From contig OZ037767.1 in NCBI GenBank assembly GCA_964035545.1, positions 10,984,581 to 11,048,580 of the forward strand: 64,000 nucleotides of DNA. The letters are read 5' to 3'. The DNA comes from Bugula neritina (lineage: Eukaryota > Animalia > Bryozoa). The position numbers were made by a program, and so were the translations under genes. The notes below the pieces were generated by a model, which was not told the origin of the DNA, did no database searches, and was given only the letters and a program-made list of their open reading frames with translations. Shown here piece by piece: positions 3,101-57,328 of this stretch; position 1 is the first letter of the stretch; every line of letters starts with the position of its first letter.

Positions 3101-3278
3101 TTTGAGTACTATTGAAGCCAGTTGTGGTTAATAACTATATTGTTGTAATTTTATGCTGCATGGTTATTGCCAGAGTAAAATAACTAGGGGCACTTAAGAG
3201 GCTAATGCTACACCCAGAAAAATGCACTCAATTTGTCAGGAAATGAGAGAGAAAATGAGAATTGCCAGTCAGTGATAG

Positions 3279-3801
3279 TGTATTTGAGACCTGCTAACTA
3301 GAGAGTCCAGGTCTGACTCTTTACAGTAGACTAATAGTCAGAATATAATGCAATTATATAAGAGCAGAACGTTACACAAAAACTGCTTCAACCCAACTCA
3401 CTGGCTGAGGCAGTCCACCTCACTTATATGAGTTGGACAATTCATCCTGATTGGATGACTGTTCAGACATCTAAATCAGCAGATTTGGAACACCTAAAAC
3501 CCCACCCAAAGTCCCAATCAGCAGTCGGGCTCCCCAAATGCCAGTTTATGGAATTTGACTAAGCTGACGGACTATATCAATCTTACACCAGTATTTAAAA
3601 TTAGCCAATCAACACACAGGGAGTACAAACATGATAGAAATATAAGAATACACATGTTGAGTATAAAAGTAAAAATATTGATTGCTGGAACTGTAAGGCT
3701 GAGGGCACACAGTTGCTTAATACTGGGGCAAGGTTATAACACATAGCGCCACAGGCTATGTAAGGGGGATAATAATATAATGCCCGGCCAAATCTATTAC
3801 A
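3279..3801 (-). repeat. Putative 3' LTR of the relic Gypsy element (different LTR family from 9367-9671)
   Basis: Starts TGTAATAG immediately after the PPT. Contains CCAAT boxes and a TATAAG. The end at ...AAATACA (3279) is a best guess; there is no second copy to confirm it. Confidence 0.5.
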
Positions 3802-4096
3802 TCAGCCCTCTCACATCAGAAAGCACGCCTTTCCGATAGAGAAGAGAAGACGACGACAACAAGAAATAAATAAAAGTTGAGATACAAGATGAAAAACGGA
3901 ATTTTAAAATGAATTGATAGTACAAGAATAAAACAAAAAACTGACTGGTTTTATCGGATAAGAATAGGTACAAAAAATGTTATAAAGAACAGTGTGAAAA
4001 GCATTACTATTGGAATGTTCACTTGTAGATGCAATAATGATACTATTATATATAATGAGTAGCACCGGGTCTATGGTAGGACAGCAGTCGCCAGTG

Positions 4097-4983
4097 TTAG
4101 GAGTGGGATTCCTGATTGCAGAGATAATGTCTTAGTCGGGTAACCTCTGCCATGCACTGCTCCAGACTCCCAGAGAGAGAAGCGAGTCGCCCTTCAAGGA
4201 TTATCAGACGGTGGCTTACTCCAGTGTCTGGGACAGAGGGGGGGTCACAAGATCCCGTGCTTCTTCTTCGCCGTCGTCGGTATACTGGTCCTGAAGCTTC
4301 CAAAGAGGGGGGTGCCGGTGGTATGAAGGCGTTGAGGCTAGGTGCAGTTCCCATATTAGGCAACACCACTGGCAAGGGCTGTGTACGAGGAGGGTCACTT
4401 CTTGGGTGACAGATATTCTCCTCGTCTTCTGAAGTGGGTCTGGTAGCGGGGAACCCCTGTAGCAGCCGGTCTCGCTTGTGCATGTCTTTTACATATGGAA
4501 GAATCAGGTCCCGAAACTCAGCAAAGCTAGTACTATCCACCTCGAAGATCTTGCCCATGTGGCAACGGGCTAATCTTTGGTGCTTGAGTAAATAATCCCT
4601 ATTGTAACTGTACTCGCCACACAGGCAGAACGTGTTGGTGAAATGCTGAGGCACGTGCACCCGTAACCTCCTATGAGAAGTGAAGGTCCTCCGACATTTA
4701 CGGCATTTAATGTTACTGGGGTCGCCACAGATGGCATTGATAGCTGCACGGGTTTGAATGGAGGTCCAGTGCGACTGCATATCCAAGGCGCGTGGCAACC
4801 GGATTTCTGCTGGTGTGGGTGTCGCCTCAGGGGGGATTTGCACAGTAGTCGGTGGGGTAATTGGAGGAGTAGGTAGAGTGTAGTACACTGTGAGTGGCAA
4901 CAGGGAGCCGGCAACCTTGCTAGGGTGTAAGAACCCATCAGGTTGGGCTGAATTGCATCCCTCATTACTGGAATGAGTCTCAC
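4097..4983 (-). CDS. Gypsy ORF3-derived C2H2-type zinc-finger/coiled-coil protein (probable terminal exon starting at splice acceptor 4983; the open frame extends to 5089)
   Basis: Uninterrupted frame with CRKC..F.SHRRLRVHVPQH..FCLCGEYSYNRDYLLKHQR, an RRRRRR basic patch and a C-terminal heptad segment. Clearly homologous to ORF 15164-16237. Acceptor-like ctcttattgtag|G at 4984/4983. Confidence 0.75.
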
Positions 4984-5266
4984 CTACAATAAGAGCAGCA
5001 CCATGAGTAGGGCGACATGAGCAAACCAAACAGCTCCACTGGCTCCGTGAAAGGGTTAATGCACTGCACCAGGAACTCCCCTCAACCATTCAGCCGATTC
5101 AGGCTGTTGGCGAGCTGTACCTTCCTGTGCACCCCTTCTACGACTCCAACTCGGAGATTTCCCTACAGTTCACAGTGCAGTGTAGCCTGGGAAACAGGGT
5201 TAGGTCTTTGACGCAAGCAATTTAGTATAATTAAATGTCAGCTCTAAAAAATTGTGCATGCATTAC

Positions 5267-5362
5267 CTGTCTCAGCAACTTCCTCATGACCATCAAATGA
5301 TTTGACTGAATTAAAGTTGTTAACTTCTTCCTCTTCAAGCTCAAAATACTCAACTTTAACAT
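5267..5362 (-). CDS. Putative 96-nt phase1-phase1 coding exon (D)VKVEYFELEEEEVNNFNSVKSFDGHEEVAET(G)
   Basis: Flanked by acceptor ccatataactttctttag| and donor CAG|GTAATG. The frame is open and acidic with a VKVE motif. Phase-compatible with 7961-7931 upstream and 4983 downstream. Confidence 0.5.
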
Positions 5363-6373
5363 CTAAAGAAAGTTATATGGAAGTAACAAATAAAAACATT
5401 GGCAAATTTTTACTTTCATTGCATCTCTCAGGTTAAAATGAACTTATTTTCTTTTGATCAACATGATGTTAGCTTCAATTTTTATATTCTATCATACAAA
5501 AGGAAAGTGAGAAAACCTTCACTATATCTGTGCCACTAACACTATACACAGACAACACAAGATGCCATATGACTACTAACCATTTGGTAGTTCAACTTCT
5601 TGATGACACACATCAATAGATTCAGGTGTTTTTACTCTTTCTACAGACACATAGACATACTATACAATGTATACCAGAAAAGCACATACTAGGTGTGAAT
5701 CTCAGTCTAGAAGAGAATGTAATCAGAAAGTAGATGGTAACGCAGGCTCTGAAACTCTGAGTTGCTGCTATAATTTGAGAAGCACAGACAACACTACACT
5801 AAAACTCAGTCTCACTCAACAGTACTTTAAAATTAGAGAAAATATATTTATAACAAAAATTTACATTGCCAGTAAAATACATGGACAGTAATTTACAGGC
5901 AGTCAATGATTTCATATCTGGTTTAAACACTAAACATTTTGAATAGTTGGTACCTAGGCATCATTATATAAATAATACAAAGCTACTAACCATCACAGAT
6001 GTCATGAGGTACAGGTTCAGTTTTGACTTTGTTCATAGTTGTATCAAGTTACTGGTAATAACAAAGCAAGGTTTCACGTTTATTTCGTATCTTCACATCT
6101 GCTATAACTAAAAAACATTCCGAAAATAAAATTATAATATAAACTTACTAAAAGCAACACTCACACTGCTACTACTAGTACTGGTGTTACTGTTGGAAAC
6201 ATCAACAGTCGCACTCACACTGCTTCATTGTCAGTGTTACTGTTAAGTGTTTACGGTTAATGTTACTTATAGTTATACTTATACTTATAGTATTATTTAT
6301 ACTATTAGTAAAGTATTACTATTAGTATTAGACTTAGTGTAAGTCTAAGAGTAAGTGTTACATTTACAGTTAG

Positions 6374-7698
6374 GGGGCCATCCATAAATTATGTCACACT
6401 TTATTCAGCACTTTTTGACCCCCCCTCCCCCCCTTGTCACAAAGTGTCACGCTTATATGACCCCCTCCCCCCATGTGATGTCACACAGATTATGTAAACG
6501 CCCTTTTAAGATTAAATACTCCATACAAAAAGTACTGATTGAATGGTTTATGTTTAGTAATCATTACAGGCACAAAGTTCAATATTTATGAATGCAACTT
6601 TTTAAGAACCTAAATTTATTCAGTGTATCATTATTATCCAATGACAAGAAAATCATAAACATTATTGAAACCATGCTTGATTTAATAAGGCAGGTCATAA
6701 GTTCTGGCCTATAACTGCTATTTTTACTGCCTCAGTGGTATTAAAGTTCCACTAGAGCATGAAGTCTGTTTTTCAACATCATAATAGTTAGTTTTCTTCG
6801 ATCCATGGTACTGTGGCCCATTCCTGGACTGAATGAATGATGGGTAGGGAATCTACAGGGATTGCAAGATCTTTTTGAACACTTGAGGTAATAGTATCCA
6901 AATCCTCCTCATCGATCCTCTTTGAAACCTCAACAAATTTTGCACCTGTATGGAGGTTGGTGTGGCTAGATTTTGCTTTCTGACTGGGAAAATACATCCC
7001 ACAAACCGGGCAAATACGGGGTTGTAATTTCCCAATCAGTGATGGACAGTACAGGTCAAATGGAAATATTTTGAATGTCTTTGCACATTGTGGGAGGATT
7101 GCTGATAAAGCGATTCGGGAAAACAGGGATCCGTAGTGTGAATCTATTAAGGTTTCGTCTGGCTCAGGAGCCACCAAACCATGCCTTGTTTGTTTGACTG
7201 GTACAGGAGGTGGTATGAACCTTCCAGGCAGTATGGCACGAATACTGCTTCGGTATGGCCTACAACAGGACTGATCATCACATTTTGTGATCTGCAAGAA
7301 ATACTGGCTTTGGAGAAGATGTTTTCTTTCCAAGTTTCAGAGAGTTCATCCCACATATCTTCTGTGTCTTCTGGAGGGACATAGACAGCGATGACAGGAT
7401 TACTGTCAATTACTGTTTTTGACCAGGTGCAGGTGCAGAGGTCAAGGAGTGGGATTTTTGCTAATTGGTCTGGGGAGGGGGGTCTGTTTTTATTGTGCTT
7501 TATATTGACAAAAAATACATGTATTTGATGTTTTATGTTCAGTATTAATACATATCTGAAATATTTTGTTTTGGTAAAATATTTGAAAATGTGACATCAC
7601 ACATATCTACCCTCCCCCCCTCCCCCTTGTCACAAACTGTCACACATGAGGGTACCCCCTCCCCCCCCTTGAGCGTGACATAATTTATGGATGGCCCC
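6374..7698 (-). mobile_element. Non-autonomous (internally deleted) Zator-like TIR DNA transposon, 1325 bp
   Basis: Perfect 24-bp terminal inverted repeats (TIRs) GGGGCCATCCATAAATTATGTCAC. A 3-bp TSD TAG lies at 6371-6373 and 7699-7701. Carries a transposase C-terminal fragment. The superfamily is assigned from GG termini, 3-bp TSD and recalled motifs, not from a search. Confidence 0.8.
6788..7333 (-). pseudogene. C-terminal fragment of a Zator-like transposase (no catalytic DDE region)
   Basis: H..QSQYFLQITKC.D..CC...RS...LP.RFIPPP and FDLYCPS...RICPVCG.YFPS..A..SH...H, lying inside the TIR element. Confidence 0.6.
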
Positions 7699-9366: not shown

Positions 9367-9671
9367 TGTGGTGGCTCGTGGAGCTACCAGCAACACAATA
9401 CGCAAGGTTGCGTATTGACCCGGAACAATGTATTAGCCAATTAGCTAAGCTGTTTGATAAGTAATAGTAGCCGCTTCGCGCTACTAGCTCAGTTGAGGAT
9501 AGTGCTGTAAACTAAATAGACATGCGTATCATTACTGTTGTACATTGGATTTTTATTATGTATTCTTGTATTAAATATAACGATATCTACTCGACTTAAC
9601 TGGTGAAGTTTCTCTAGTGTTAAATAGACTCTCTTGGTGGCACATCAACCCTAAATCTGAAAACTATAACA
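9367..9671 (+). repeat. 5' LTR
   Basis: TGTGGTGG...TATAACA; direct repeat of 16506-16810; Inr-like TCAGTT at 9489; ATTAAA poly(A)-like signal. Confidence 0.97.
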
Positions 9672-9672
9672 G

Positions 9673-9690
9673 TGGTGGCAGCGGTGGGAT
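9673..9690 (+). promoter_or_regulatory. Primer-binding site for tRNA-Leu
   Basis: TGGTGGCAGCGGTGGGAT is the exact 18-nt complement of the 3' end of metazoan tRNA-Leu(AAG/TAG), ...ATCCCACCGCTGCCACCA, and lies 1 nt after the LTR. Confidence 0.92.
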
Positions 9691-9704
9691 AGTGTATATC
9701 AAAG

Positions 9705-10571
9705 ATGGAGACTGAAAATGCTAGAATGCAACCACCCCCAGTAGAAGGTGAGCGTATAAATGCTGTTAATCCTGTGAATCGTGAAGGAGAAGAAGCTTAT
9801 AGACATTGCTTGAAAGCTCCCACCTTTACTGGGTCGGAAGATGTCGAACAATTTATACAAGAATTTAGAGAGGTAATGGAAGTTGCTCAATGGCCGCATA
9901 GAGTGGCCCTTATCAAATTGCGGAGGGCGGTGACGGAGCAAGCCAAGCCGTACGGAGTGGGAACGGACGTAGACGGCATACTGGCTGCGCTGCGGGCCCG
10001 TTTTGGCACCTCCGTCATAGACGCTAGGACCAAGCTGGAGAGATTGTGCCGCACCCCGCGGACCTCGCTGCAAGAACATGCCGCGACGGTGAAGAAGCTG
10101 GCGCAGATTGCATATAGCGATCTGCCAGCACAACACCAAGAGCGTTACACCTATGACGCCTTTGTCCAGTCCCTAAACGACCTGGGCCTAGACCATCACC
10201 TACGAGCTAAAGGGATAACCAGAATAGAGGATGCCCTGAAGGCTGGAGAAGCTTACCTGTTGGCTACCCAAATGCATCGAGCACAAAGGAACCCCCCAGT
10301 AGTTGGAGTCAGCGCTGCCAGGGCTACGACAGGCTCCGAAGCCCTCCCGCTGGAAGCCGAAGTGGACCGCATGATAGAGATGCTGGGACAATTGGTAACC
10401 ATTCTGGCCGGTGCTGGCCCCGGTCGGGCCTTGCGGATGCCCCCAACATCTGTGGGGCAGGGCTGGAGTAGCGCTGATCAGGACCAGGGACAGAAAGGAC
10501 GACCCCAATACCAGGGGGCGTTAAACTGTCACGGCCCGCGGACACACTCCCTCCCCGCGGGCCGCAACTAA
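9705..10571 (+). CDS. gag: Gag (capsid-like) protein, 288 aa
   Basis: First ORF after the PBS; PTFTGSEDVEQFIQEF..W-type Gypsy gag N-domain; no CCHC knuckle visible. Confidence 0.88.
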   Translation: METENARMQPPPVEGERINAVNPVNREGEEAYRHCLKAPTFTGSEDVEQFIQEFREVMEVAQWPHRVALIKLRRAVTEQAKPYGVGTDVDGILAALRARFGTSVIDARTKLERLCRTPRTSLQEHAATVKKLAQIAYSDLPAQHQERYTYDAFVQSLNDLGLDHHLRAKGITRIEDALKAGEAYLLATQMHRAQRNPPVVGVSAARATTGSEALPLEAEVDRMIEMLGQLVTILAGAGPGRALRMPPTSVGQGWSSADQDQGQKGRPQYQGALNCHGPRTHSLPAGRN

Positions 10572-10577
10572 AGGAGT
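10520..10577 (+). promoter_or_regulatory. Putative -1 ribosomal frameshift signal (G_UUA_AAC plus downstream stem/pseudoknot)
   Basis: The heptamer is in gag phase at 10520-10526. A perfect 10-bp GC stem (10532-10541/10555-10564) starts 5 nt downstream. Loop ACTCC can pair with GGAGT at 10573-10577. The -1 frame is open downstream. Confidence 0.7.
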
Positions 10578-10859
10578 ATGGTGGAACGCGACGTCGTCTG
10601 TCCGTACGGACACGGCGGAACATTCCACCCGAGTGGCAGGTACCACGCAGGACTAGTAGGCCCGCACAACGGCCCAGTACCTTCTCCCTGCCACTCGCTA
10701 ACCGGTTTCACCGGTTACCTCGGGAAGAGGAGCCCGCCACTGAAATGGAGCCAGAAGGCCCAGTGGAGAGGCCCAAACCCCGCCGGCACCAACCTCGCCG
10801 CCGGAAGCCCCGTAAACCACGGGTGAAACCCCCGCCGTCCTGTCAAACCAGGACAGCAC

Positions 10860-13800
10860 ATGCGGGGGGGGGTGAAAGTACAACCACATGGAGAGAGCTA
10901 TTTCCTACCCGGAAAGGTGGCCGGCAACGCCGTCACTTTCCTGCTCGACTCCGGTTGTACTACCAACCTTCTCAGTCGCAGAGTCTTTGAGGCACTGCCC
11001 CGCCGGGACAGGGATAGAGTACGACCGTATACTGGAGAGCATGGCACCCTGGCAGACGGGTCATGTATCCCCTTTTATGGTATTATCGAGCTCCCTGGGC
11101 GTGTCCGAGATCAGGCTGTACAGGAGACCTTTATCATAGGTCAACTGGAGGAAGATGCTATCCTCGGAATGCCCTTCTTGAAGCAACACCAGTGCCGAAT
11201 AGATTTCAGTAAATCGGTGGTGCTGATGGGCGGGCGAGAACTCGCCTGTGTGGATAAGTTTGGGCGTCCTCTGGTGGGCGGTGTTCAGGTAGTTCGAAAC
11301 TGCACCGTACCCGGACGCTCCAGAGCTACTATCCACTGCCGAGTGAACAGCAACCGGATAGCCAGGCTCGGGGTCGTTGAAAGCGCGCACGAAAAGATCC
11401 AACTCGCCAGTAGTTTAAACCGACTAACTGAGCGAGGGGAGGTCTTAGTGCAGTGCGTCAACCCCTTTACCGAGCCCATTGAGCTCCCAGCTGGGTCAAT
11501 GCTGGGCCGGTTCCATTCCGTCCAGGAAGAGGACGTGGGCCCGTCGCTGGGTGACGCGACGGAGGCACCCCCTCGACACCCTATTCAGGGACGAGGGGCA
11601 GTCCCAACACATCTCCGGGAGTTATACGAAACAGCCAGTGGCGGCTGCGCGAGTAACAGAGAACGCCAAGCTATGGCCAAGTTACTACGCGACTACGGTG
11701 ATGTGTTCAGCAGCGGAGAGCATGACGTGGGACTGACTGGAATTGTCAGACACGAAATACCGCTGACTGCAGGGACAACCCCTGTCCGGCAGCCCACGCG
11801 CAGGCTGGGGCCGGAGAAAGAGAAGGAGGTTAGCCGACAAGTACGGGATCTTCTGGACCGGGGACTGATAGAGCCCGCCCACAGTGCGTGGAGCTCGCCA
11901 GTCGTACTGGTCCGGAAGAAAGACGGCAGTTGGCGGTTCTGTGTGGACTACCGCAAACTCAATAGCGTAACCATACAGGACGCCTACCCTCTACCTCGTA
12001 TTGACGAGTCATTGGACGCCCTAGCCGGCAGCAAGTACTTCAATACGTTAGACTTGCTAAGCGGCTATTGGCAGGTTCCTCTGAGTCCCGACGCCCAAGA
12101 GAAAGCGGCGTTTATCACACGGGACGGTTTGTGGAAGTGGAAGGTGCTGCCCTTCGGGTTAACCTCCGCCCCAGCCACCTTCCAGAGGCTGATGGAACAA
12201 GTCCTTAGCGGACTCCACTGGAAGACACTGCTGGTCTACCTCGATGATGTCATCGTAATCTCTCCAGACTTCGAGACACATGTCAGTCGTCTGCAGGAGG
12301 TTTTCGAGAGACTCCGAGGTGCCGGTCTTAAGCTCAAACCTTCCAAGTGCGCTCTATTGCAGCCGGAGGTCAAGTACCTGGGGCACGTTGTCGGTCGAAA
12401 CGGCGTGGCAGCGGATCCCGAAAAGGTACGGGCAGTAGAAGACTGGGTCACCCCCCAAGACTTGACCGGACTCCGGGCTTTCTTGGGGCTGGTAGGGTAT
12501 TACAGGCAATACATACCAGACTTTGCGGGCATAGCCCAGCCGTTAAACCGGCTCACCGCAAAGGGAGTGACGTGGCAGTGGACCCCAGTCGAACAAGAAG
12601 CGTTCGACCGCCTCAAGGGCTGCCTATTAACGGCGCCCATCTTGGCCTACCCAGACCCCACTCTGGAGTACATCCTTGACACAGACGCCAGTGACCAGAA
12701 TGTTGGCGCTGTGCTGTCACAAGTGCAGGAAGGCCGAGAGGTAGTAGTAGCCTACTACAGCAAGTCTCTCTCACCCGCTGAACGAAATTACTGCACTACC
12801 CGCAAGGAGCTGCTGGCAGTAATCAAGTCAGTGAAGCACTTCAGACCATACCTATATGGCAGGAAGTTCCGGCTGCGTACGGATCATGCCTCGCTGATCT
12901 GGTTGTGCAGGAGAGCAGAGCCCTCTAGTCAGGTCGCCCGGTGGCTCGAAATCCTAGCTGAATTCTCGTACCGGATCGAACACCGACCGGGCAAGAGACA
13001 CAGCAATGCGGATGGGTTGAGTCGCCGACCTGACGGAGGTTGCAAACAGTGTCTCAACATCGAGAGGAGGGATGGAGGTCCCCCACGATGCGAGTTGGAG
13101 ACGCTGGCTCATCACGGAGCATCATTTGACTGGGATCAAGGTCAACTCAGGCAAAGAGTTGATGAATCCCCGGAGGATGTACAAAACCTCCGCGCCAACC
13201 CTGTACTGGCCGGTAATGTTCGAGAGCTGAAGAAGCTCCAAGAAGAGCTGCCTGGAGTCGTGGCAGACATATACCGGGCCAAAAGGGAAGGGCGACGACC
13301 CAGCGAGGAACGCATACGACAGGGATGCGCCGAGTTCCGGCTATACTGTCAGCGTTGGGACTCGCTGCGGATCGGGCAGGATGGGTTGCTAACCATCTCT
13401 CTAGCTGCCAGCGGCAGACACCCGGAAAGGAAGAGGGTAGTCTGCCCCACAGCCATCCGCCGTGAGTTGATTTGGGATACTCACAAGCAGGCCCACGCAG
13501 GGGTCAAGCGAGTGATATCCAAATTACGACTCCGGTGGTATTGGCCGCAGATGGAGCGTGACGTCCGGCTCAGAGTCAAACAGTGTGAGATCTGCCAGGC
13601 CAGTAAGCATAGCCGCCCCCCTGGTGAAGCAGGACGGCGGAGGCTATATGCTGGTAGGCCCTGGCAAGTAGTCGCTGTAGACCTGGTCGGACCCATGCCC
13701 CTGACCCCCAGAGGCAATAATTGGATCCTAGTACTAACCGACCACTTTACTAGGTGGGCGGATGCTCTGGCTATATCAGATGCATCAGCCCCGACAGTGG

Positions 13801-15146
13801 CCAGGGCGCTAGACCAACATGTATTCTGTTATTTTGGGCTCCCCGAACAGATACACTCTGATCAAGGCGCTCAATTCCAGTCTCAACTGATGAGCGACCT
13901 TTGCCGCCTCTGGGGAGTAAATCAGAGCAGGACCACCCCCTACCACCCTCAAGGTAACGGGGTGGTGGAGCGCAGCAACCGGATGCTAGGTGATGCACTC
14001 CGGAGTCTCCTCCTTGGACGAGGCCAAGAGGAATGGGATACGGTGTTGCCGCAAGTCATGCGTGCATACCGTAGCACCCCACACACCAGTACTGGTGAGA
14101 CCCCAAACCTCTTGATGCTCGGGAGAGAGACTCGTGTCCCTGACCATCTCACCTATCACGTTCCAGAGCAAGATAACTCAGTCCACGAGTATGCCAGTGA
14201 ACTAGTGGAACGGATGAAGGCCGCACACGATATACTGCGCCAACAGCAGTGGAAGGTGCGGCACGAAGATTCCGATGAACCACCTCTCTATCAAAGGGGA
14301 GATAAGGTGTGGATGGTCAATTACCGTAGGCGCCGCGGACAGGCTGATAAGCTGAAGCCTAAGTTCGTAGGCCCCTACGTGGTCGTCGAGGCTATGCCCA
14401 ATCATACGTACAAGATTGAGCGCTCAGGACAGGTGTCTATCCAGAATGAGTCTCGCTTGAAACCGTATTGGGCTAGCCCTGACGGAGTGGGAGAAGCCCC
14501 CCCGTTGTTAGAGCCCAGGAGGCAGACAACGACGCGCGGGCGACGGCGGCATGGACCTGAATACGAAGTGGTCATACCGCGGGAGGAAAACTTGGTGAGA
14601 GAGGAGCGGCAGCTTTTGTCAACAGAAGCGTGTCCGCCACCGCCAAGTCTAATTCCATCACTTCCAGAAACCGAGCCGGTTCCGGAAGTGCAAACCCCCA
14701 CGGAGGGAGGGGCTCCATCCGGAGAACAAGAAGAGGTGACCACTAACGGTGAAGTAGAGACGCCATTAGAGGCCCCTACTAACGAACCGGCAAGCGTGTC
14801 ACCCCCCCTAGAAAGGGGACAGCGTACGAGGAAACCCCCACCGTATTTGAAAGACTTCATATGTGACTGCATTAGAAGCGGCGCACATGAAAGTCTAGGG
14901 GAAAACCGTACGATAAAATGTTGGAGTTGTGAACCCCACGCAAATATCAACTTTTGCGAGGGCGGAATAGTGGGAGGAATTAATGCGCGTAAAGCAAATA
15001 GTTCCGACCTCGTGCCTCAGAAACGATGCTCAGCCTTTTCTTATGCTGACATCGCCAAAGGCAGACGTATCTCACAACCAGCTCCAACCTTACCAAGAAC
15101 GTTGAGTATGGACATTAATACCGAGTTCCCAGGTAAGCCAGTATAA
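10860..15146 (+). CDS. pol: Pol polyprotein: aspartic protease, reverse transcriptase, RNase H, integrase
   Basis: LLDSGC protease; WRFCVDYRKLN, LPFGL and YLDD RT; TDAS and RTDH RNase H; H-H-C-C zinc domain; VDLVGP/HSDQG/VERSNR DDE integrase; GPY module. The true N-terminus probably begins in the -1 frame at ~10520. Confidence 0.97.
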   Translation: MRGGVKVQPHGESYFLPGKVAGNAVTFLLDSGCTTNLLSRRVFEALPRRDRDRVRPYTGEHGTLADGSCIPFYGIIELPGRVRDQAVQETFIIGQLEEDAILGMPFLKQHQCRIDFSKSVVLMGGRELACVDKFGRPLVGGVQVVRNCTVPGRSRATIHCRVNSNRIARLGVVESAHEKIQLASSLNRLTERGEVLVQCVNPFTEPIELPAGSMLGRFHSVQEEDVGPSLGDATEAPPRHPIQGRGAVPTHLRELYETASGGCASNRERQAMAKLLRDYGDVFSSGEHDVGLTGIVRHEIPLTAGTTPVRQPTRRLGPEKEKEVSRQVRDLLDRGLIEPAHSAWSSPVVLVRKKDGSWRFCVDYRKLNSVTIQDAYPLPRIDESLDALAGSKYFNTLDLLSGYWQVPLSPDAQEKAAFITRDGLWKWKVLPFGLTSAPATFQRLMEQVLSGLHWKTLLVYLDDVIVISPDFETHVSRLQEVFERLRGAGLKLKPSKCALLQPEVKYLGHVVGRNGVAADPEKVRAVEDWVTPQDLTGLRAFLGLVGYYRQYIPDFAGIAQPLNRLTAKGVTWQWTPVEQEAFDRLKGCLLTAPILAYPDPTLEYILDTDASDQNVGAVLSQVQEGREVVVAYYSKSLSPAERNYCTTRKELLAVIKSVKHFRPYLYGRKFRLRTDHASLIWLCRRAEPSSQVARWLEILAEFSYRIEHRPGKRHSNADGLSRRPDGGCKQCLNIERRDGGPPRCELETLAHHGASFDWDQGQLRQRVDESPEDVQNLRANPVLAGNVRELKKLQEELPGVVADIYRAKREGRRPSEERIRQGCAEFRLYCQRWDSLRIGQDGLLTISLAASGRHPERKRVVCPTAIRRELIWDTHKQAHAGVKRVISKLRLRWYWPQMERDVRLRVKQCEICQASKHSRPPGEAGRRRLYAGRPWQVVAVDLVGPMPLTPRGNNWILVLTDHFTRWADALAISDASAPTVARALDQHVFCYFGLPEQIHSDQGAQFQSQLMSDLCRLWGVNQSRTTPYHPQGNGVVERSNRMLGDALRSLLLGRGQEEWDTVLPQVMRAYRSTPHTSTGETPNLLMLGRETRVPDHLTYHVPEQDNSVHEYASELVERMKAAHDILRQQQWKVRHEDSDEPPLYQRGDKVWMVNYRRRRGQADKLKPKFVGPYVVVEAMPNHTYKIERSGQVSIQNESRLKPYWASPDGVGEAPPLLEPRRQTTTRGRRRHGPEYEVVIPREENLVREERQLLSTEACPPPPSLIPSLPETEPVPEVQTPTEGGAPSGEQEEVTTNGEVETPLEAPTNEPASVSPPLERGQRTRKPPPYLKDFICDCIRSGAHESLGENRTIKCWSCEPHANINFCEGGIVGGINARKANSSDLVPQKRCSAFSYADIAKGRRISQPAPTLPRTLSMDINTEFPGKPV

Positions 15147-15163
15147 GTCTTGTATTCCTATTC

Positions 15164-16237
15164 ATGGAAACGGGCTCGATGCCAGTAAATTCTGAACTAA
15201 TTCAGCAGATTGAATCAGAATTACTGGGAACCACGTTTCATGTGAATGACGATGAAGACACTGTAATGGCCGATGGTCTGTTAGACCTGGAGCTAGACAC
15301 TGTTCTTGGTCAGTCCACACATGATTCATCAGTTCCTCGAGTGCATTCCAAAAGCTGTGACTCTCAGGCTAGCAACGGTCGACAGTCACTAGAATTAGGT
15401 TGTAAAGATCCACCGCGATCTAACACTAATTCTACTTTTGTAGACACACTCGCGCCCGTCTCTCCGGGCATGCCTTCTCTAGAGATGGCGTGGGACTCAG
15501 AGCCGGCCCCAACAACTTCTACAACCAGGCAACTGCCACCCCAGTTGGAAGCAACCTCCAACTGGATTACAACTGCCACAGAGAGAGAGATCAGGACCCA
15601 TCAAGGAGGTGAGGGTAATCGTGAATGCAACCTCTGCCAGCAGCGATTCACGACCCACCGCAGACTAAAAGTACACTTGCCGCAACACTACATCACCACT
15701 TTCTGCCCTTGCGGAGAATATAGCTACAATCGTGATTACCTGTTGCGGCACCAACGTACTATGCAGTGTTATCAAGGGCATGTCTATGAAGTAGACGAAT
15801 CATCCTATCCTGCCTTTCTCAACGCCATCAAACCACTCATCACTGACTCAGCTCGGCTATCTCGCCTGGAGCAAGGCTTCCCTTCCCCGCGACCCATCAT
15901 CTCTGGAGCCGCAGATAAACCTACACAGTCTACTAACTCTCCACCTCACAGTCCTATACGCATGCCGCATACCTTTCCTCGTGTCGTACTACAGAGAGTA
16001 GACACGAATGCGTATACACTCCCTCCTCCCCTTCCATCCTCAGAGCGGAAAAGACACAGGCAGCCAACTTCCTCTCGCTCGTCCCCCTGGGCCCGTAACC
16101 TACGTGAGGTAGAAGCTAGGGCGCATGACTTGGAGCAAGAAGTGTACAGGCTGGCCCCACGGGTACAGGCAGCATCCAGTGAACTCAAATATTTACAGGA
16201 GTCTATTAAACGCATGAAGCGTGCGGCCCGCAGTTAA
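15164..16237 (+). CDS. ORF3: C2H2-type zinc-finger protein with basic patch and C-terminal coiled coil (not env-like)
   Basis: 357-aa intact ORF between pol and the PPT: CNLC..RFTTHRRLKVHLPQH and FCPCGEYSYNRDYLLRHQR; RKRHR; LREVEARAHDLEQEVYRL..ELKYLQESIKRMK. No signal peptide or transmembrane segment. Confidence 0.85.
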   Translation: METGSMPVNSELIQQIESELLGTTFHVNDDEDTVMADGLLDLELDTVLGQSTHDSSVPRVHSKSCDSQASNGRQSLELGCKDPPRSNTNSTFVDTLAPVSPGMPSLEMAWDSEPAPTTSTTRQLPPQLEATSNWITTATEREIRTHQGGEGNRECNLCQQRFTTHRRLKVHLPQHYITTFCPCGEYSYNRDYLLRHQRTMQCYQGHVYEVDESSYPAFLNAIKPLITDSARLSRLEQGFPSPRPIISGAADKPTQSTNSPPHSPIRMPHTFPRVVLQRVDTNAYTLPPPLPSSERKRHRQPTSSRSSPWARNLREVEARAHDLEQEVYRLAPRVQAASSELKYLQESIKRMKRAARS

Positions 16238-16494
16238 CTCGAGTCTACCTACAACTCCCTACTACTCATTCCCCTACCTCTCTGTGGCATTCCCTACCGT
16301 AATGGTGGCACGTACTCTATATGTAGATAGGATCTTCTCTTGCTTATTACTTAGTGCACGTTATATATACCTGTATATTTTTTACCAGTTGTTTTATTTT
16401 GTATATACTTTTATACTGTTCTCTTACCCCCCCACAACGAAGTATACGTTTTTTTTATGTGAATCTTATTTTATCAGAAAGTGGGCTTTCTGCT

Positions 16495-16505
16495 GGAGGG
16501 GGCAG
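16495..16505 (+). other. Polypurine tract
   Basis: GGAGGGGGCAG immediately before the 3' LTR TG. Confidence 0.85.
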
Positions 16506-16810
16506 TGTGGTGGCTCGTGGAGCTACCAGCAACACAATACGCAAGGTTGCGTATTGACCCGGAACAATGTATAAGCCAATTAGCTAAGCTGTTTGATAAG
16601 TAATAGTAGCCGCTTCGCGCTACTAGCTCAGTTGAGGATAGTGCTGTAAACTAAATAGACGTGCGTATCATTACTGTTGTACATTGGATTTTTATTATGT
16701 ATTCTTGTATTAAATATAACGATATCTACTCGACTTAACTGGTGAAGTTTCTCTAGTGTTAAATAGACTCTCTTGGTGGCACATCAACCCTAAATCTGAA
16801 AACTATAACA
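16506..16810 (+). repeat. 3' LTR
   Basis: Identical to the 5' LTR except at 16573 (A vs T at 9434) and 16661 (G vs A at 9522). Confidence 0.97.
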
Positions 16811-49300: not shown

Positions 49301-52300
49301 AAATTCACAATAACCCTGATTATTTAGGTGTATTTATTGACATTTTACTAGCTTTGGGCAAAAACCCATGTTCATTAGCAGCTAAATCGTGAAAAATAGC
49401 TAAAAACTTGAGATCTCTAGTGTACTAAATTAAGTAGAATGACCCAAGTATTATAGACAAAGTGAAAAATCAAACTACAGCCAAAATATAGAAGCGGTAC
49501 GTGTTGTACTCACAGCGCTGGCTTGAGGCATTGCATGAGAGTTGAGCAGGTCCTTGAAAGTGCTTTCATCTAGTATTATTCCATAGGTGCCTGCAAGTGA
49601 CAGTGAAAGGCATATATTATATTCATCTGGTCATAAAGTTAGGGATTTGTGTTCTGCTGAAATATCTTGAATCTGAGGCATGGCTCACATACACCTAATA
49701 CATGGTTCACACACACCTAATACATGGTTCACATACCTAATACATGGTTCACACACACCTAATACATGGTTCACACACACCAAATACATGGTTCACATAC
49801 ACCTAATACATTGTTCACAGTTCACATACACCTAATACATGGCTCACACACACCTATTACATGGTTCACATTCCTAATACATGGTTCACACACACCAAAT
49901 ACATGGCTCACGCACACCTATTACATGGTTCACATACACCTAATACATTGTTCACAGTTCACATACACCTAATACATGGTTCACACACACCTAATACATG
50001 GTTCACATACACCTAATACATGGCTCACACACACCTAATACATGGTTCACACACACCTAATACATGGTTCACATACACCTAATACATGACTCACACACAC
50101 AGTCACACATACATACAAACATGTGCAAACACCTAAAGACATATGCAGACACCTACAGACACCAGAATACACTAGCAAACCAACCTGATGTTTTATTACA
50201 AAGTTCTTTACAGATTCTGACTTCAGCAGCTAAACCAATGACTGAGCACTTTACTGCGTTCTTTGCCAGAGAATCTATGGTGAGGTGAATATCCGAGGGG
50301 TCACAGGTCGTTAGACTGCTCATGATGATGACTATCTATGACATGCATACATGTATCACTTATAGCATGTACTCAATGTATGTAGTAGTGTAATTATATA
50401 TACGATGTACCAGAAAAATAAAAATGCTAAGTCGAATGTACCAAATATTGCCAATATATTACACTAGCACTGCAGGTGAAATGCAATGCACGATTTGAGT
50501 GACCAATGTTGTCAGTGATGATTCATGCATATGCATTACATTGTGGGGAGATCCTGAATACCCAAATATTACCTCTTATTTAAATTATACGTTAATTAGT
50601 CAAGTAGCATTTTACTCAGCTGCAAGTTAGCTGAAGAAACAATTACTATGTAAACATAAACAGTAGACTAGATGCAGTTTTGACTATTAGTAGCCAACAC
50701 TTCCGTAAGCAGAAACTCTGAGCTAGGGTGGGTTTGAGAGTTTCATTTGTTTTTGTTATATTTAGTCTAAAGTGAAAGAGAAAATACATATAACTGAAAA
50801 TATTGACAAAGCACTGTGGGGCAATAGCACTGAACAAGCCATAAATATAGTATTCTTAAAATTATGCTGCATAGTTCAAACTGTACTCCCAGTTTTGTCT
50901 GTAGTGCTCTATTTACTATATTTCTATTGAGCCATGATTAAACAAAATGTAATCTTCGTGAAATTTGTGTGTTAACACTACGGACTGCATACCAATGCTC
51001 TATTTATAAAATATTCCTGACGTGACTCATCAAAAACTCTTTTCACAATTTGTGGTTCAGGTACTTGTTTTATATTTTTAAAAGTTCCATTTTTACAGTT
51101 AATGGAATTCAATCATAATCCCAGTAACCTTTGCAAAGGCTGAATTGAATTAATGATAGGGGTTGACAACTACCAACCAACCTCTTTACTAGTGTGAGGT
51201 GGCACATGCTTCAGCGTTTGGTAGGCCAACTCCAAACTGTTCTGTAGAGAAAACTCTCCTTTGCATTGGTTATGCTTTAACTTCTTCAAAACTCCAGTGA
51301 GCCTTTGGGGGTTGCCTTTAATAATAAGTAATAAAAATGCTTCAAATTATAAATAAAAATGACAAACTTTCACTTTGACATAAAGCTGAGTGCATGCATC
51401 ATTGGCCAAGGCAGTATATACTATATAGAACATAGATAATTAAGAGGTTTTGGCAAATATTGTAAGGAGTAAAATTGCCATGTCAAAAAGAGGGCATGGT
51501 GATGACAGTGACTAATGCCACACAGATAAATACAGGTGCTAGTAGATATAGTAATATGGCAGGTAAACACAGGTGCCAACATGTGCATATATACTAGCAT
51601 GTTAAGCGAAACAGATGAATAAATTTCACACAAGTTAATGAATGCTAAAAAATACCTCCCAGTTCAGCAACTCTTTCAGCACGCTTGTTGCAGGAGGAAA
51701 TTATTCCCAGCTGACTGATCGGATTTTGGTCAAAATATGAGTCGACAAACAATTCACATAACTACAAAAAGTCAACTATAGTCAGTCACCTTAAGAACTA
51801 TGATGAACTGCAATATGTTTAAAATATTAGGTATAACTTTTAGTGACTTCCTTTAGTTAACTTTGCAACAACAAAAAATTTTAATCTAAAGTTTAAAATA
51901 ATCTCTAGTTTATAAGTATTACTCCAACTATGAAGAAAAGAATGGTAAGTCATGTGGAGATGCTGAGAGGCACAAACAACAAACAACCGCAGCCAGGTAA
52001 GCACTTGGTGGTCATACTACTAGCATAGTGTAAGCTGGCAACTATCTTTATTTAGGCTTTCAACTTGCCTAACATTATGAATCACCCAAGAGTCAGATGT
52101 GACTATTGCATTATGCACTCACTTGACTGTTTGCAATCTGTTGTTAGCATTATATGCTGCATATAATAAGACAAGCAAAGTGATCTATAATTCTACATTT
52201 TTCCATTAAATGACTAGTACAATGAGAATATTCACCAAATTTCAGCGCATGCATCATAAGGTACACATTTCTGGCAACTTTCACCACCCAGCAATTCAAC

Positions 52301-54830: not shown

Positions 54831-55915
54831 ATTCTGGTCACAAAGTCAAATACCTAAGTCGAACTCTAAGGGCTAACCGCTAAGGTGAGGTTTTTTGTTG
54901 TTGTGTTTACATTCACTTTCAGTGAGTTCAACGGTATTACTATAACTATAAGTATAGCTAAAAGATATTGCCGCACAAGTCACCATAAGTATGACTGTAT
55001 GAGTAAACTCAACACTACATTAGTTTAATTAATTGACCACCTTACTAAACGAGATTTATGATTGTAAGTCACCACAAACAGATTTCCCTTCAGTTTCTAC
55101 CACCAATCCATATTTTATATGGAATTAAAAGTAAGTTTATAACTTGTTAATTTTTTAATTTTTTTAACGGCTAAAGTCTTTTGTATCTTTGTGATTAGAG
55201 TGCTTGGTAATTAATGATTCTAACATGCATAGTGAGTGTTTTGTGCACTGTAAAATTGCGTTCCAACAGCAGGGAGGTACAAATGTATCTATCAACTACA
55301 AGTATTAGTAAGCTTGCATGGTGCATTCTTTATTCTTAAGACACTTTTGTCTTTTTATAAGCGTGGCTTAAGATACATTTCTTTAATATGTTGAAAAAGT
55401 TCAGTGCGAGTTTATTTCATGTTTTCTACAAAGCTTTTAAAACCATTGCACTTTGACAGCAAAGCTGCCTGTGGTACAGTGTCTGGCTAAAAAGTCTCTT
55501 TGGTTTGTTTCAACACAAACATTTAAATAACCACCATCAGAACAAACAAAAATTTTGAAAAGCAGCAAGGGTTAAGGTCAAAGTGAACAATTTTTTATTC
55601 AAATCATTTACTCCCTCAGTGTCAGCTTGGATTTCCAATAGCTTCCATTAGGATAGATAACTTTTTTCAACAGTACTGCTGAATTGCATAATTAGAGTTT
55701 TTTTAATGCAGCATGTTGATAAGTATAAAAATGTTGGAGGCCTTATGCAAAAGCTTCAAATTTTCTTATATTCGAAAAGTTACCCTCAATAAAGCGCTGC
55801 TATAAACACATATTTTTAAATATGAATCTACAATTCTACATGTATTTGTAATTTTTGGAAGTGCTACAATTATAGTCATGGTTTTATTTATTTGCAGGGG
55901 TGAATTTATGCTACT

Positions 55916-57328
55916 ATGGAACTACTAAAAACTAAAAAAGGACGGTTCGTTATTCTTGTGGTCTCTGTTTCGGTTATAGGATATTTGTGTAGTTATACCT
56001 TTTCTAAGACCACTATCACCAATAACATTTCTGGATATGCAAAGACTGTGCTGAATTTTGACCGTGGTCAAATAAGACAGCATGAGAACAAATCTTTTTC
56101 TGATATAAGCACTACTACACCCACTAAACACGAGGAAATCTTCCATAGTCGCTGTTACAATCCACCTAAGCACAAACGAGTTACACATCCTCTAACAGCT
56201 CAGCAGATTGCAGACTCTCTTGCTAAAAGAATTGAAATTTCTCCTCGGACTTTGCAAGACATTACCGAGGCAATAGAGCTCAATGTTATAAGTATTAACG
56301 AAAGCGATATAAATAATATAAAGATAATCTTAGGTTACCATGGTTACGAGCATACACCCCATTATACTTGGTACAACTTCACTCACTGTGAATACACAAA
56401 CTGCATCCCACTAAATCCACATAGAAGCCCTAGTCACCCAATGGCTCCTACCTCTGTAGCACAAGCAGCAAGTATCATGCTCTTTAACTTGGTGGAAATG
56501 TACCTAGGCACAACACTCAAAAATATCCCTCGTAGAAGTGATCAGTATTTTGGAGTTACCTCCCTTGAATCTACGGGATACTCATACAATGTTATGTCTC
56601 CTAATTTGAATGGACTGATCAACATGACGTTGACATATCACAGGAAGTCCACTGTTCCCGAATGGCATATTTTTAGGGCTTGTATTGATAAGCGTGAGCA
56701 GAAAAAGCATTCTGTTAACTATGCAGCAAGAAAGACTAAAGGTGCATTGGCCTATGTTAGCAACTGTTTCTCTATGCAGTATAACCGCTTGGATCTTATG
56801 AGAAAACTCTCTAAGTTTGTGCCAGTTGATATCTATGGCTCATGTGGAGCACCTGATCCCTGTGGGAGTTTGGAGTCTTCACAAAAGTCAAAATGCTCCG
56901 CAAAACTTCATCAACAATACCACTTCTATTTGAGCTTTGAAAACTCGCTGTGTGAAGACTACATAACAGAGAAGTTCTGGGACAGGTTATCAGATCCTGA
57001 CTATATGCTGCCAGTAGCCATGGGAGGCTTGAGAGTGCAAGAGTATGTTGAGCAGGCTCCTCCTAACTCTTTCCTACATGTCAGAAATTTCACCACTGTT
57101 GAGAAGCTTGGAAAATATTTAAGTTATTTAATGAAAAATCCAACAGAATACAATGCTTATCATGAATGGCGCGAGAGCTGGCATGCATTTAAAAGGCCCA
57201 TCTACACGAGATTCCCTTCTTGTGAGTTGTGCAAAATTGCTAACGAAAAGCCTTCTATGCCTGCTGATGATGACTTGTCCACAAAATATAACAATCCAGC
57301 ATTCTGTAGCAGCTATACTTATAGTTGA
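55916..57328 (+). CDS. Alpha-1,3-fucosyltransferase (GT10), single coding exon, type II membrane protein
   Basis: N-terminal transmembrane segment FVILVVSVSVIGYL; SLES, LTYHRKS, YVSNC, VDIYGSCG; alpha-1,3-FucT motif YHFYLSFENSLCEDYITEKFW; PPNSFLHV; YNAYHEWR. Confidence 0.95.
   Translation: MELLKTKKGRFVILVVSVSVIGYLCSYTFSKTTITNNISGYAKTVLNFDRGQIRQHENKSFSDISTTTPTKHEEIFHSRCYNPPKHKRVTHPLTAQQIADSLAKRIEISPRTLQDITEAIELNVISINESDINNIKIILGYHGYEHTPHYTWYNFTHCEYTNCIPLNPHRSPSHPMAPTSVAQAASIMLFNLVEMYLGTTLKNIPRRSDQYFGVTSLESTGYSYNVMSPNLNGLINMTLTYHRKSTVPEWHIFRACIDKREQKKHSVNYAARKTKGALAYVSNCFSMQYNRLDLMRKLSKFVPVDIYGSCGAPDPCGSLESSQKSKCSAKLHQQYHFYLSFENSLCEDYITEKFWDRLSDPDYMLPVAMGGLRVQEYVEQAPPNSFLHVRNFTTVEKLGKYLSYLMKNPTEYNAYHEWRESWHAFKRPIYTRFPSCELCKIANEKPSMPADDDLSTKYNNPAFCSSYTYS

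Follow-up and report, generated by a model that had tools for sequence, protein, structure and literature searches.

What kind of gene is a third ORF (ORF3) that lies between pol and the polypurine tract (PPT) of a Ty3/gypsy element, and is it a gene of its own at all? The question arises from the DNA analysed here, a stretch of 64 000 nt from the bryozoan Bugula neritina (hereafter, the window), which holds a young Ty3/gypsy insertion spanning positions 9367-16810 from LTR to LTR (Table 1). Its two LTRs (9367-9671 vs 16506-16810; 305 bp each, TG...CA) are 99.3 % identical, and a target-site duplication, ATAT, flanks both ends of the element. Together with a primer-binding site, which we take to be of the tRNA-Leu type, a PPT and a Pol with the order protease, reverse transcriptase, RNase H, then integrase with a GPY/F module, these features place the element in Ty3/gypsy. 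It does not qualify as a chromovirus, since Pfam scans of pol, ORF3 and five related Pols of the fused kind described below detected no chromodomain.

Table 1. Features of the intact Ty3/gypsy element and of the host gene on the opposite strand (positions within the window)
Feature	Positions	Strand	Remarks
5' LTR	9367..9671	+	TG...CA, 305 bp, ATAT before it
Primer-binding site	9673..9690	+	Start same in 7 related loci
gag ORF	9705..10571	+	288 aa
Candidate splice donor near gag start	9745..9752	+	Consensus, phase 1
Linker ORF between gag and pol	10478..10990	+	170 codons, Arg/Pro-rich, other frame
pol	10827..15146	+	Protease, RT, RNase H, integrase with GPY/SH3 module, disordered tail; Pfam scan
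Candidate splice donor just 5' of pol stop	15130..15137	+	Consensus, phase 1
ORF3	15164..16237	+	357 aa
Polypurine tract	16494..16505	+	
3' LTR	16506..16810	+	Followed by ATAT
Host gene exon 1	5991..6036	-	46 nt, ATG, phase-1 GT donor
Host gene exon 2	5581..5640	-	60 nt, AG/GT, phase 1
Host gene exon 3	5267..5362	-	96 nt, acidic, AG/GT, phase 1
Decayed pol remnant in intron 3	5031..5192	-	62 % to pol residues 165-220, stops
Host gene exon 4	4097..4983	-	From Gypsy zinc-finger/coiled-coil module
Remnant 3' end and PPT-like tract	3801..3840	-	Resembles that of the intact element, then TG

The gag product is 34 % identical to the gag of related polyproteins, and the linker ORF resembles, by eye, the N-terminal extension of the Pol of relatives. 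The frames of gag, the linker ORF and pol are 2, 1 and 2, so that the window copy shows two frame changes; a G run lies near the second of them, and no slippery heptamer was found there. The window gag has no CCHC knuckle; at its C-terminus (around 10460-10510), where relatives have the CCHC, a knuckle-like spacing is seen by eye with none of the four ligands, and the knuckle was likely lost at the level of the family. In the Logan contigs of run X1 the summed depth over the ORF3 bins (23 000-41 000) was similar to that over gag (34 000-54 000), and no indel with a share of at least 10 % was listed between 12093 and 16353, a pattern that fits a multicopy family keeping ORF3 in its present phase, depth not being copy number. 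Elsewhere in the window lie an intronless fucosyltransferase gene (55904-57328; Glyco_transf_10, E 1e-46), a tRNA-Pro (61887-61958), a 22-nt tandem array (around 49660-50120) and, just 3' of the element, exons from around 17440 that we take by eye to resemble D-amino-acid oxidase.

ORF3 itself is a 357-codon ATG ORF in the -1 frame relative to pol, beginning 17 nt past the pol stop (15144-15146) and ending 269 nt before the 3' LTR. Its product consists of an acidic N-terminus (residues 1-60), a disordered linker, a two-finger domain (124-245), a basic patch (around 296-303) and a coiled coil (311-357), in agreement with the first-pass annotation, which had described a soluble, nuclear-looking protein with two zinc-finger-like motifs, a basic patch and a C-terminal coil. 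Finger 1 is a canonical C2H2 finger (C-x2-C-x12-H-x3-H). The second finger is atypical (C-x-C-x12-H followed by C or H), and with its C-x-C spacing, its variable last ligand and the linker YITTF the pair departs from tandem canonical fingers joined by a Kruppel-type linker; the Pfam C2H2 scores remain under the cut-off (E 0.02). In the coil, all 13 heptad a/d positions are hydrophobic, with one proline inside; a simple coil score is 0 for the window ORF3 because proline-containing windows are dropped. No transmembrane segment was detected (best 19-residue Kyte-Doolittle mean, 0.58), and no env family of Pfam matched ORF3, so that it does not qualify as an envelope glycoprotein.

From a 40-sequence alignment, AlphaFold2 predicted a compact domain for the ORF3 core (pLDDT 93). 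Superposed with VIA-align, residues 27-78 of the domain model match DNA-bound tandem C2H2 pairs over 50-57 residues at 2.3-2.9 A, with a Z of only 3.0-3.6. Foldseek searches of the PDB and BFVD returned no match at E <= 0.001, a search of the ESM Atlas returned only unnamed clusters and generic C2H2 families, and a profile search of PDB sequences matched single C2H2 fingers, with SALL3 as the best (E 9e-6). The predicted fold is thus a tandem finger pair within a compact domain, and the modelled geometry of the pair is compatible with sequence-specific DNA binding. A homodimer prediction for residues 118-357 reached a score of 0.20 as against a mark of 0.32, which counts neither for nor against a dimer. 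In its order of acidic N-terminus, finger pair, basic patch and coil, ORF3 reads like a transcription factor. RNA evidence for ORF3 was limited to one contig, of depth 2.6, in a metatranscriptome; runs X2-X4, of small share, do not enter the evidence on expression or habitat.

Homologues are numerous and, as far as they can be named, bryozoan. A word-seeded search yielded 47 homologues of ORF3 with 35-73 % identity, none of them named, and HMMER, run with the 133-residue core, returned 311 matches at E <= 0.001, of which 58 reach 1e-10; generic multi-finger proteins make up many of the weak ones. Five of the 20 clusters looked up bear a species name, i.e. Watersipora subatra (two) and Bugula neritina (three). 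The domain is also present in uncharacterised host proteins of Bugula neritina (EB796_004208, EB796_000763/000764) and Watersipora subatra (XP_067940964, XP_067944745), which are annotated as hypothetical or uncharacterised, the names shown carrying no link to Gypsy. Two tandem copies of the domain occur in each of the bryozoan or unnamed proteins P0190/P0048, P0194 and P0065. The ORF3 pattern matched none of 80 and none of 224 candidates from viral contigs, and none of 103 from metagenomes. An integrase scan of viral contigs with a single protein found none, one with an integrase alignment found five distant loci, all without the module, and one of prokaryote genomes was negative (0 of 19).

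The origin of ORF3 becomes apparent from its relatives. In a set of Pols comprising the best 120 of 155 relatives, a profile built solely from stand-alone homologues detected the two-finger domain of around 110 residues in frame at the C-terminus, after the integrase, in 37 (E 4e-36 to 1e-7). Six positions (C155, C158, H171, H175, C183 and H196) show no variation among the 37 fused tails, C181 is kept in 31 and the last His in 32; a heptad repeat at the C-terminus was seen in 22 of the 37 vs none of the control linker windows. The fused domain lies around 240 to 800 residues beyond the GPY motif, and it is absent in frame from 71 Pols with that motif, several of which have near-identical fused sisters. 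Fused forms are spread over the whole of an integrase tree built from 110 sequences after removal of 11 short ones, with examples in the window clade's sister group and on the deepest ingroup branch. This tree comprises relatives without a clade name and no reference element of Osvaldo, Mag A/B/C, CsRN1, MolGy or PolGy. Distances between finger domains correlate with those between integrases (Mantel rho 0.76, p 0.0005; 37 tips, i.e. 36 fused Pols and the window).

The same picture emerges from the DNA. Among 18 of 56 loci fetched, chosen for an integrase identity of at least 44 % and at least 1150 nt downstream, the profile placed the domain after the integrase in 11, fused in six and behind a stop or frame change in five, some of the latter being plainly decayed and one lying on a rearranged contig; in five further loci a more diverged pair of fingers is visible by eye, and the remaining two have none. 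In three loci (L006, L007 and L013) the module ORF ends 20-30 nt 5' of a PPT. Loci L016, L022, L030, L031 and L044 have, after the integrase, a diverged finger pair followed by an acidic tail, under the profile threshold. Two distant Gypsy Pols (P0318 and P0319; 36-37 % identity, on contigs of 0.4-5 Mb) carry another finger pair, C2HC plus C2H2, in the same integrase-tail position and without a match to the domain profile; zinc-finger tails may thus have arisen more than once. Another locus, L003:948-8108, has a 2387-codon Gypsy-like ORF whose part after the integrase appears envelope-like by eye and is in frame (furin-like site, Cys-rich, hydrophobic end). Judging from these comparisons, ORF3 is a C-terminal module of Pol and its integrase rather than an independent accessory gene. 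Of the view that an accessory ORF had taken the place of env, the non-env character stands, and the idea of a replacement gives way to a detached Pol tail.

How the module came to be read separately is suggested by the window clade, within which the domain tree contains no fused Pol. The same Met start is present in 19 of the 21 close homologues that have an N-terminus, which indicates that the module can exist apart from the integrase, and the separate ORF is likely a subfamily trait, as far as protein starts can tell. Only two consensus splice donors exist in the 7.4-kb element (0.54 expected), at 9745 and 15130, and both match in phase the first AG past the pol/ORF3 junction, which falls within codon 8 of ORF3. 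For the donor just before the pol stop, 0.003 would be expected in 40 nt; these matches are post hoc. Therefore, splicing could give either an env-like subgenomic RNA or a Pol-linked form. Consensus donors are lacking in 14 of 16 related loci, no slippery heptamer as a signal for -1 frameshifting was found at the pol/ORF3 junction, and the RNA runs showed no splice junction into ORF3. At L008:5514-5540, in a partly decayed copy, a pyrimidine-rich tract, TAG and ATG follow the pol stop within around 20 nt, like the acceptor of the host exon in the window.

That host exon is the second copy of the module, on the minus strand at 4097-4983, and it is 47 % identical to ORF3 over 132 aa (E 7e-41), i.e. 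roughly half, as had been estimated by eye. It had been taken for a second, divergent Gypsy family, a view that must be abandoned: no paired LTR was found for it within the window, the nearby pol remnant comprises only 56 codons with stops, and the copy is a spliced exon. The Logan protein P0192 joins three short peptides to a homologue of this copy, and the peptides map to 6036-5991, 5640-5581 and 5362-5267, with GT-AG introns in phase 1, followed by 4983-4097. This copy is therefore a Gypsy remnant that provides the terminal exon of a single-copy-like host gene with four exons. The pol remnant inside intron 3 and the PPT-like tract on the 3' side show that the direction was from element to host.

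The host gene has the marks of domestication, i.e. splicing to host exons, an apparent single copy, the same site in other individuals and purifying selection. Depth over exon 4 was flat and low in three runs (87, 61 and 100-340), and none of the indels listed (12 of 23) falls within it. Between X1 and the window, seven of nine differences in exon 4 are synonymous and the other two fall in one codon (binomial p around 0.001), and P0192 differs from the window in 8 % of the exon 4 residues, so that constraint is moderate. In the core of the two copies, ORF3 and exon 4 differ by a pN of 0.38 and a pS of 0.87, which points to purifying selection, with no dN/dS figure given as dS is saturated. The B. 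neritina protein EB796_004208 has the three small 5' exons of the window host gene (75-93 % identity) on a more distant finger exon, and named bryozoan host genes occur at several places in the domain tree (FastTree, 123 columns, modest support), which suggests repeated exaptation of the module in bryozoans. In runs X6 and X7, which bear the organism code of X1, the host gene (3200-6500) is present at 5-7 % divergence with almost none of the words of the intact element (14800-16500); they are possibly a sister lineage without the recent element family. Around 340 nt upstream of the first coding exon of the host gene lies a DNA transposon remnant (6374-7698) with 27-nt terminal inverted repeats (96 %) and a 182-codon piece of a minus-strand ORF with a weak C2H2 match; its termini look Zator-like.

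A hint at function comes from short motifs in the tails. The pattern [ED][ED]GE[ILV], which the available text of two papers describes as the ARS2-binding pattern of Red1, ZFC3H1, ZC3H4 and FLASH (PMC9402713, PMC10767929), occurs in 11 of the 37 fused tails (0.27 expected; carriers partly kin), nine times 10-43 residues before the domain, and in five of 156 stand-alone proteins (0.14 expected). It is absent from all 71 non-fused tails and from the Pol bodies of the fused forms, and it was found neither in the window ORF3 nor in the close relatives checked. An acidic LxxLL-like helix is present in seven of 35 fused tails (0.1 expected), six of them with a Met just upstream. As both motifs were first noticed by eye, these tests are post hoc.

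Taking these data together, we favour, tentatively and at somewhat less than an even chance, the reading that ORF3, the zinc-finger/coiled-coil module of an integrase tail in a frame of its own, acts in the nucleus as a DNA-binding regulator, boosting or protecting transcription of the element's own copies. Of the three functions suggested in the first-pass annotation, transactivation of the LTR and anti-silencing, both covered by this reading, gain indirect support, whereas integration targeting would be the rival discussed below. Translation of the split form would begin at its own conserved ATG or use a spliced subgenomic RNA, its fingers would bind the LTR or nearby chromatin and its coil would oligomerise. 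The acidic helix, or the ARS2-type motif in a third of the fused relatives, would then engage host transcription and RNA-fate factors, which might let element RNA evade silencing, decay or premature termination. In the fused forms, the module would travel with Pol to the new insertion. Counting against such a regulator, fusion to the integrase is the textbook site for a targeting domain, and a Pol-level, particle-bound transactivator would be unusual. It is tempting to extend this reading to counter-defence, i.e. to suppose that an undescribed, large Ty3/gypsy lineage of marine invertebrates encodes a transcription-factor-like protein mimicking the ARS2-binding motif of the host, that the zinc-finger/zipper module, Pol-fused or separate, steers the sorting of RNA by the cap-binding complex and ARS2 away from terminating or degrading element RNA, and that bryozoans repeatedly exapted the module as the terminal exon of zinc-finger genes; we regard this extended version as doubtful.

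Integrase tails are known to direct integration in Ty1, Ty5, MLV and chromoviruses, and the module could likewise be an integration-targeting device, a functional analogue of the chromodomain by which the integration complex is anchored on DNA or chromatin, possibly near promoters rich in ARS2 and the cap complex, with the split form rejoining the integrase by splicing, frameshifting or coiled-coil contact. This is possible, if on the improbable side. It would account for the co-divergence of finger domain and integrase, for the phase match between the donor just before the pol stop and the first downstream AG (post hoc), and for the in-frame place after GPY/SH3, where chromodomains sit according to the available text of PMC2774666 and PMC13524379. 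It sits less well with the distance from the GPY motif and the 71 GPY Pols without an in-frame domain, near-identical sisters of fused forms among them, and with a subfamily that keeps a separate start behind a junction lacking a slippery heptamer. An RNA-binding substitute for the nucleocapsid knuckle of Gag, acting in packaging or as an RNA chaperone, is suggested by the knuckle-less gag of the window and by the 23 polyprotein regions upstream of the protease, none of which shows a knuckle; we consider it very improbable, since the module co-occurs with an intact CCHC in L006, L007, L008 and L014 (and in L016 with a diverged pair) and since the predicted geometry fits DNA-binding tandem fingers. 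Least probable of all, and largely refuted, is that ORF3 is a zinc-finger gene of the host, captured recently and carried as a passenger of no use to the element: the domain is present in annotated bryozoan genes, but these are nested within the element sequences in several places of the tree, the host exon of the window keeps element remnants on both sides (pol upstream, the PPT-like tract downstream), and the domain, with its invariant ligands, spans the whole integrase tree down to the deepest branch.

The regulator reading has parallels among known systems. Foamy virus Tas/Bel1 and plant VANC are nuclear accessory regulators encoded by the element itself, and the Grande retrotransposon reportedly carries an accessory gene. 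As suggested for ORF3, these are nuclear proteins encoded in the 3' part of the element and proposed to act on its own expression; unlike them, the present module is fused to Pol in many relatives, and no match in sequence or fold to them was found. Chromoviruses and chromodomain errantiviruses (PMC2774666, PMC13524379, available text) similarly have a Ty3/gypsy Pol with an extra chromatin-facing module past GPY/F. In contrast, the module here is a two-finger zinc domain with a coiled coil, is remote from the integrase core and can also be encoded as an ORF of its own. The env ORF3 of errantiviruses (PMC13524379, available text) shares the position between pol and PPT, and the donor near the gag start is a candidate for an env-like spliced RNA, whereas the window ORF3 has neither a transmembrane segment nor an env match; the bryozoan env elements described in that text are of the order gag-env-pol with a gB-type env. 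With the EDGEI proteins that bind ARS2, i.e. Red1, ZFC3H1, ZC3H4, FLASH and NCBP3 (PMC9402713, PMC10767929, available text), 11 of the 37 fused relatives share a motif in a disordered region beside zinc fingers, along with a coiled coil. However, the module is element-encoded, its fingers are of another type, the window ORF3 has no such motif and binding is putative. Ginger1 transposases (PMC2836005, available text) also combine a Gypsy-type integrase and GPY/F with added C-terminal domains; unlike the window element they are DNA transposons, with OTU, Ulp1 or PHD tails.

A literature search confined to main texts found no description of a zinc-finger integrase-tail module, though such elements may already be listed in supplementary tables, Repbase, Dfam or GyDB, and the word 'zinc' is absent from the main texts, as far as available, of PMC6238403, PMC8556966, PMC8220671 and PMC13524379. 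The poorly described lineage proposed by the first-pass annotation is supported to this extent, and proves far wider than two families. We therefore describe what is apparently an undescribed integrase-tail module of Ty3/gypsy, with fused, split and domesticated states in one lineage.

Few add-on domains are known at the C-terminus of Ty3/gypsy integrases, i.e. the chromodomain and GPY/F, and the two-finger module is a further, widespread one. Its enriched ARS2-type motif bears on whether the LTR retrotransposons of animals encode proteins that counteract nuclear RNA surveillance or hijack it. With the host exon at 4097-4983, a retrotransposon has clearly given rise to a new zinc-finger gene and, if the counter-defence reading were true, the integrase tail of a retrotransposon would be a source of host transcription factors.
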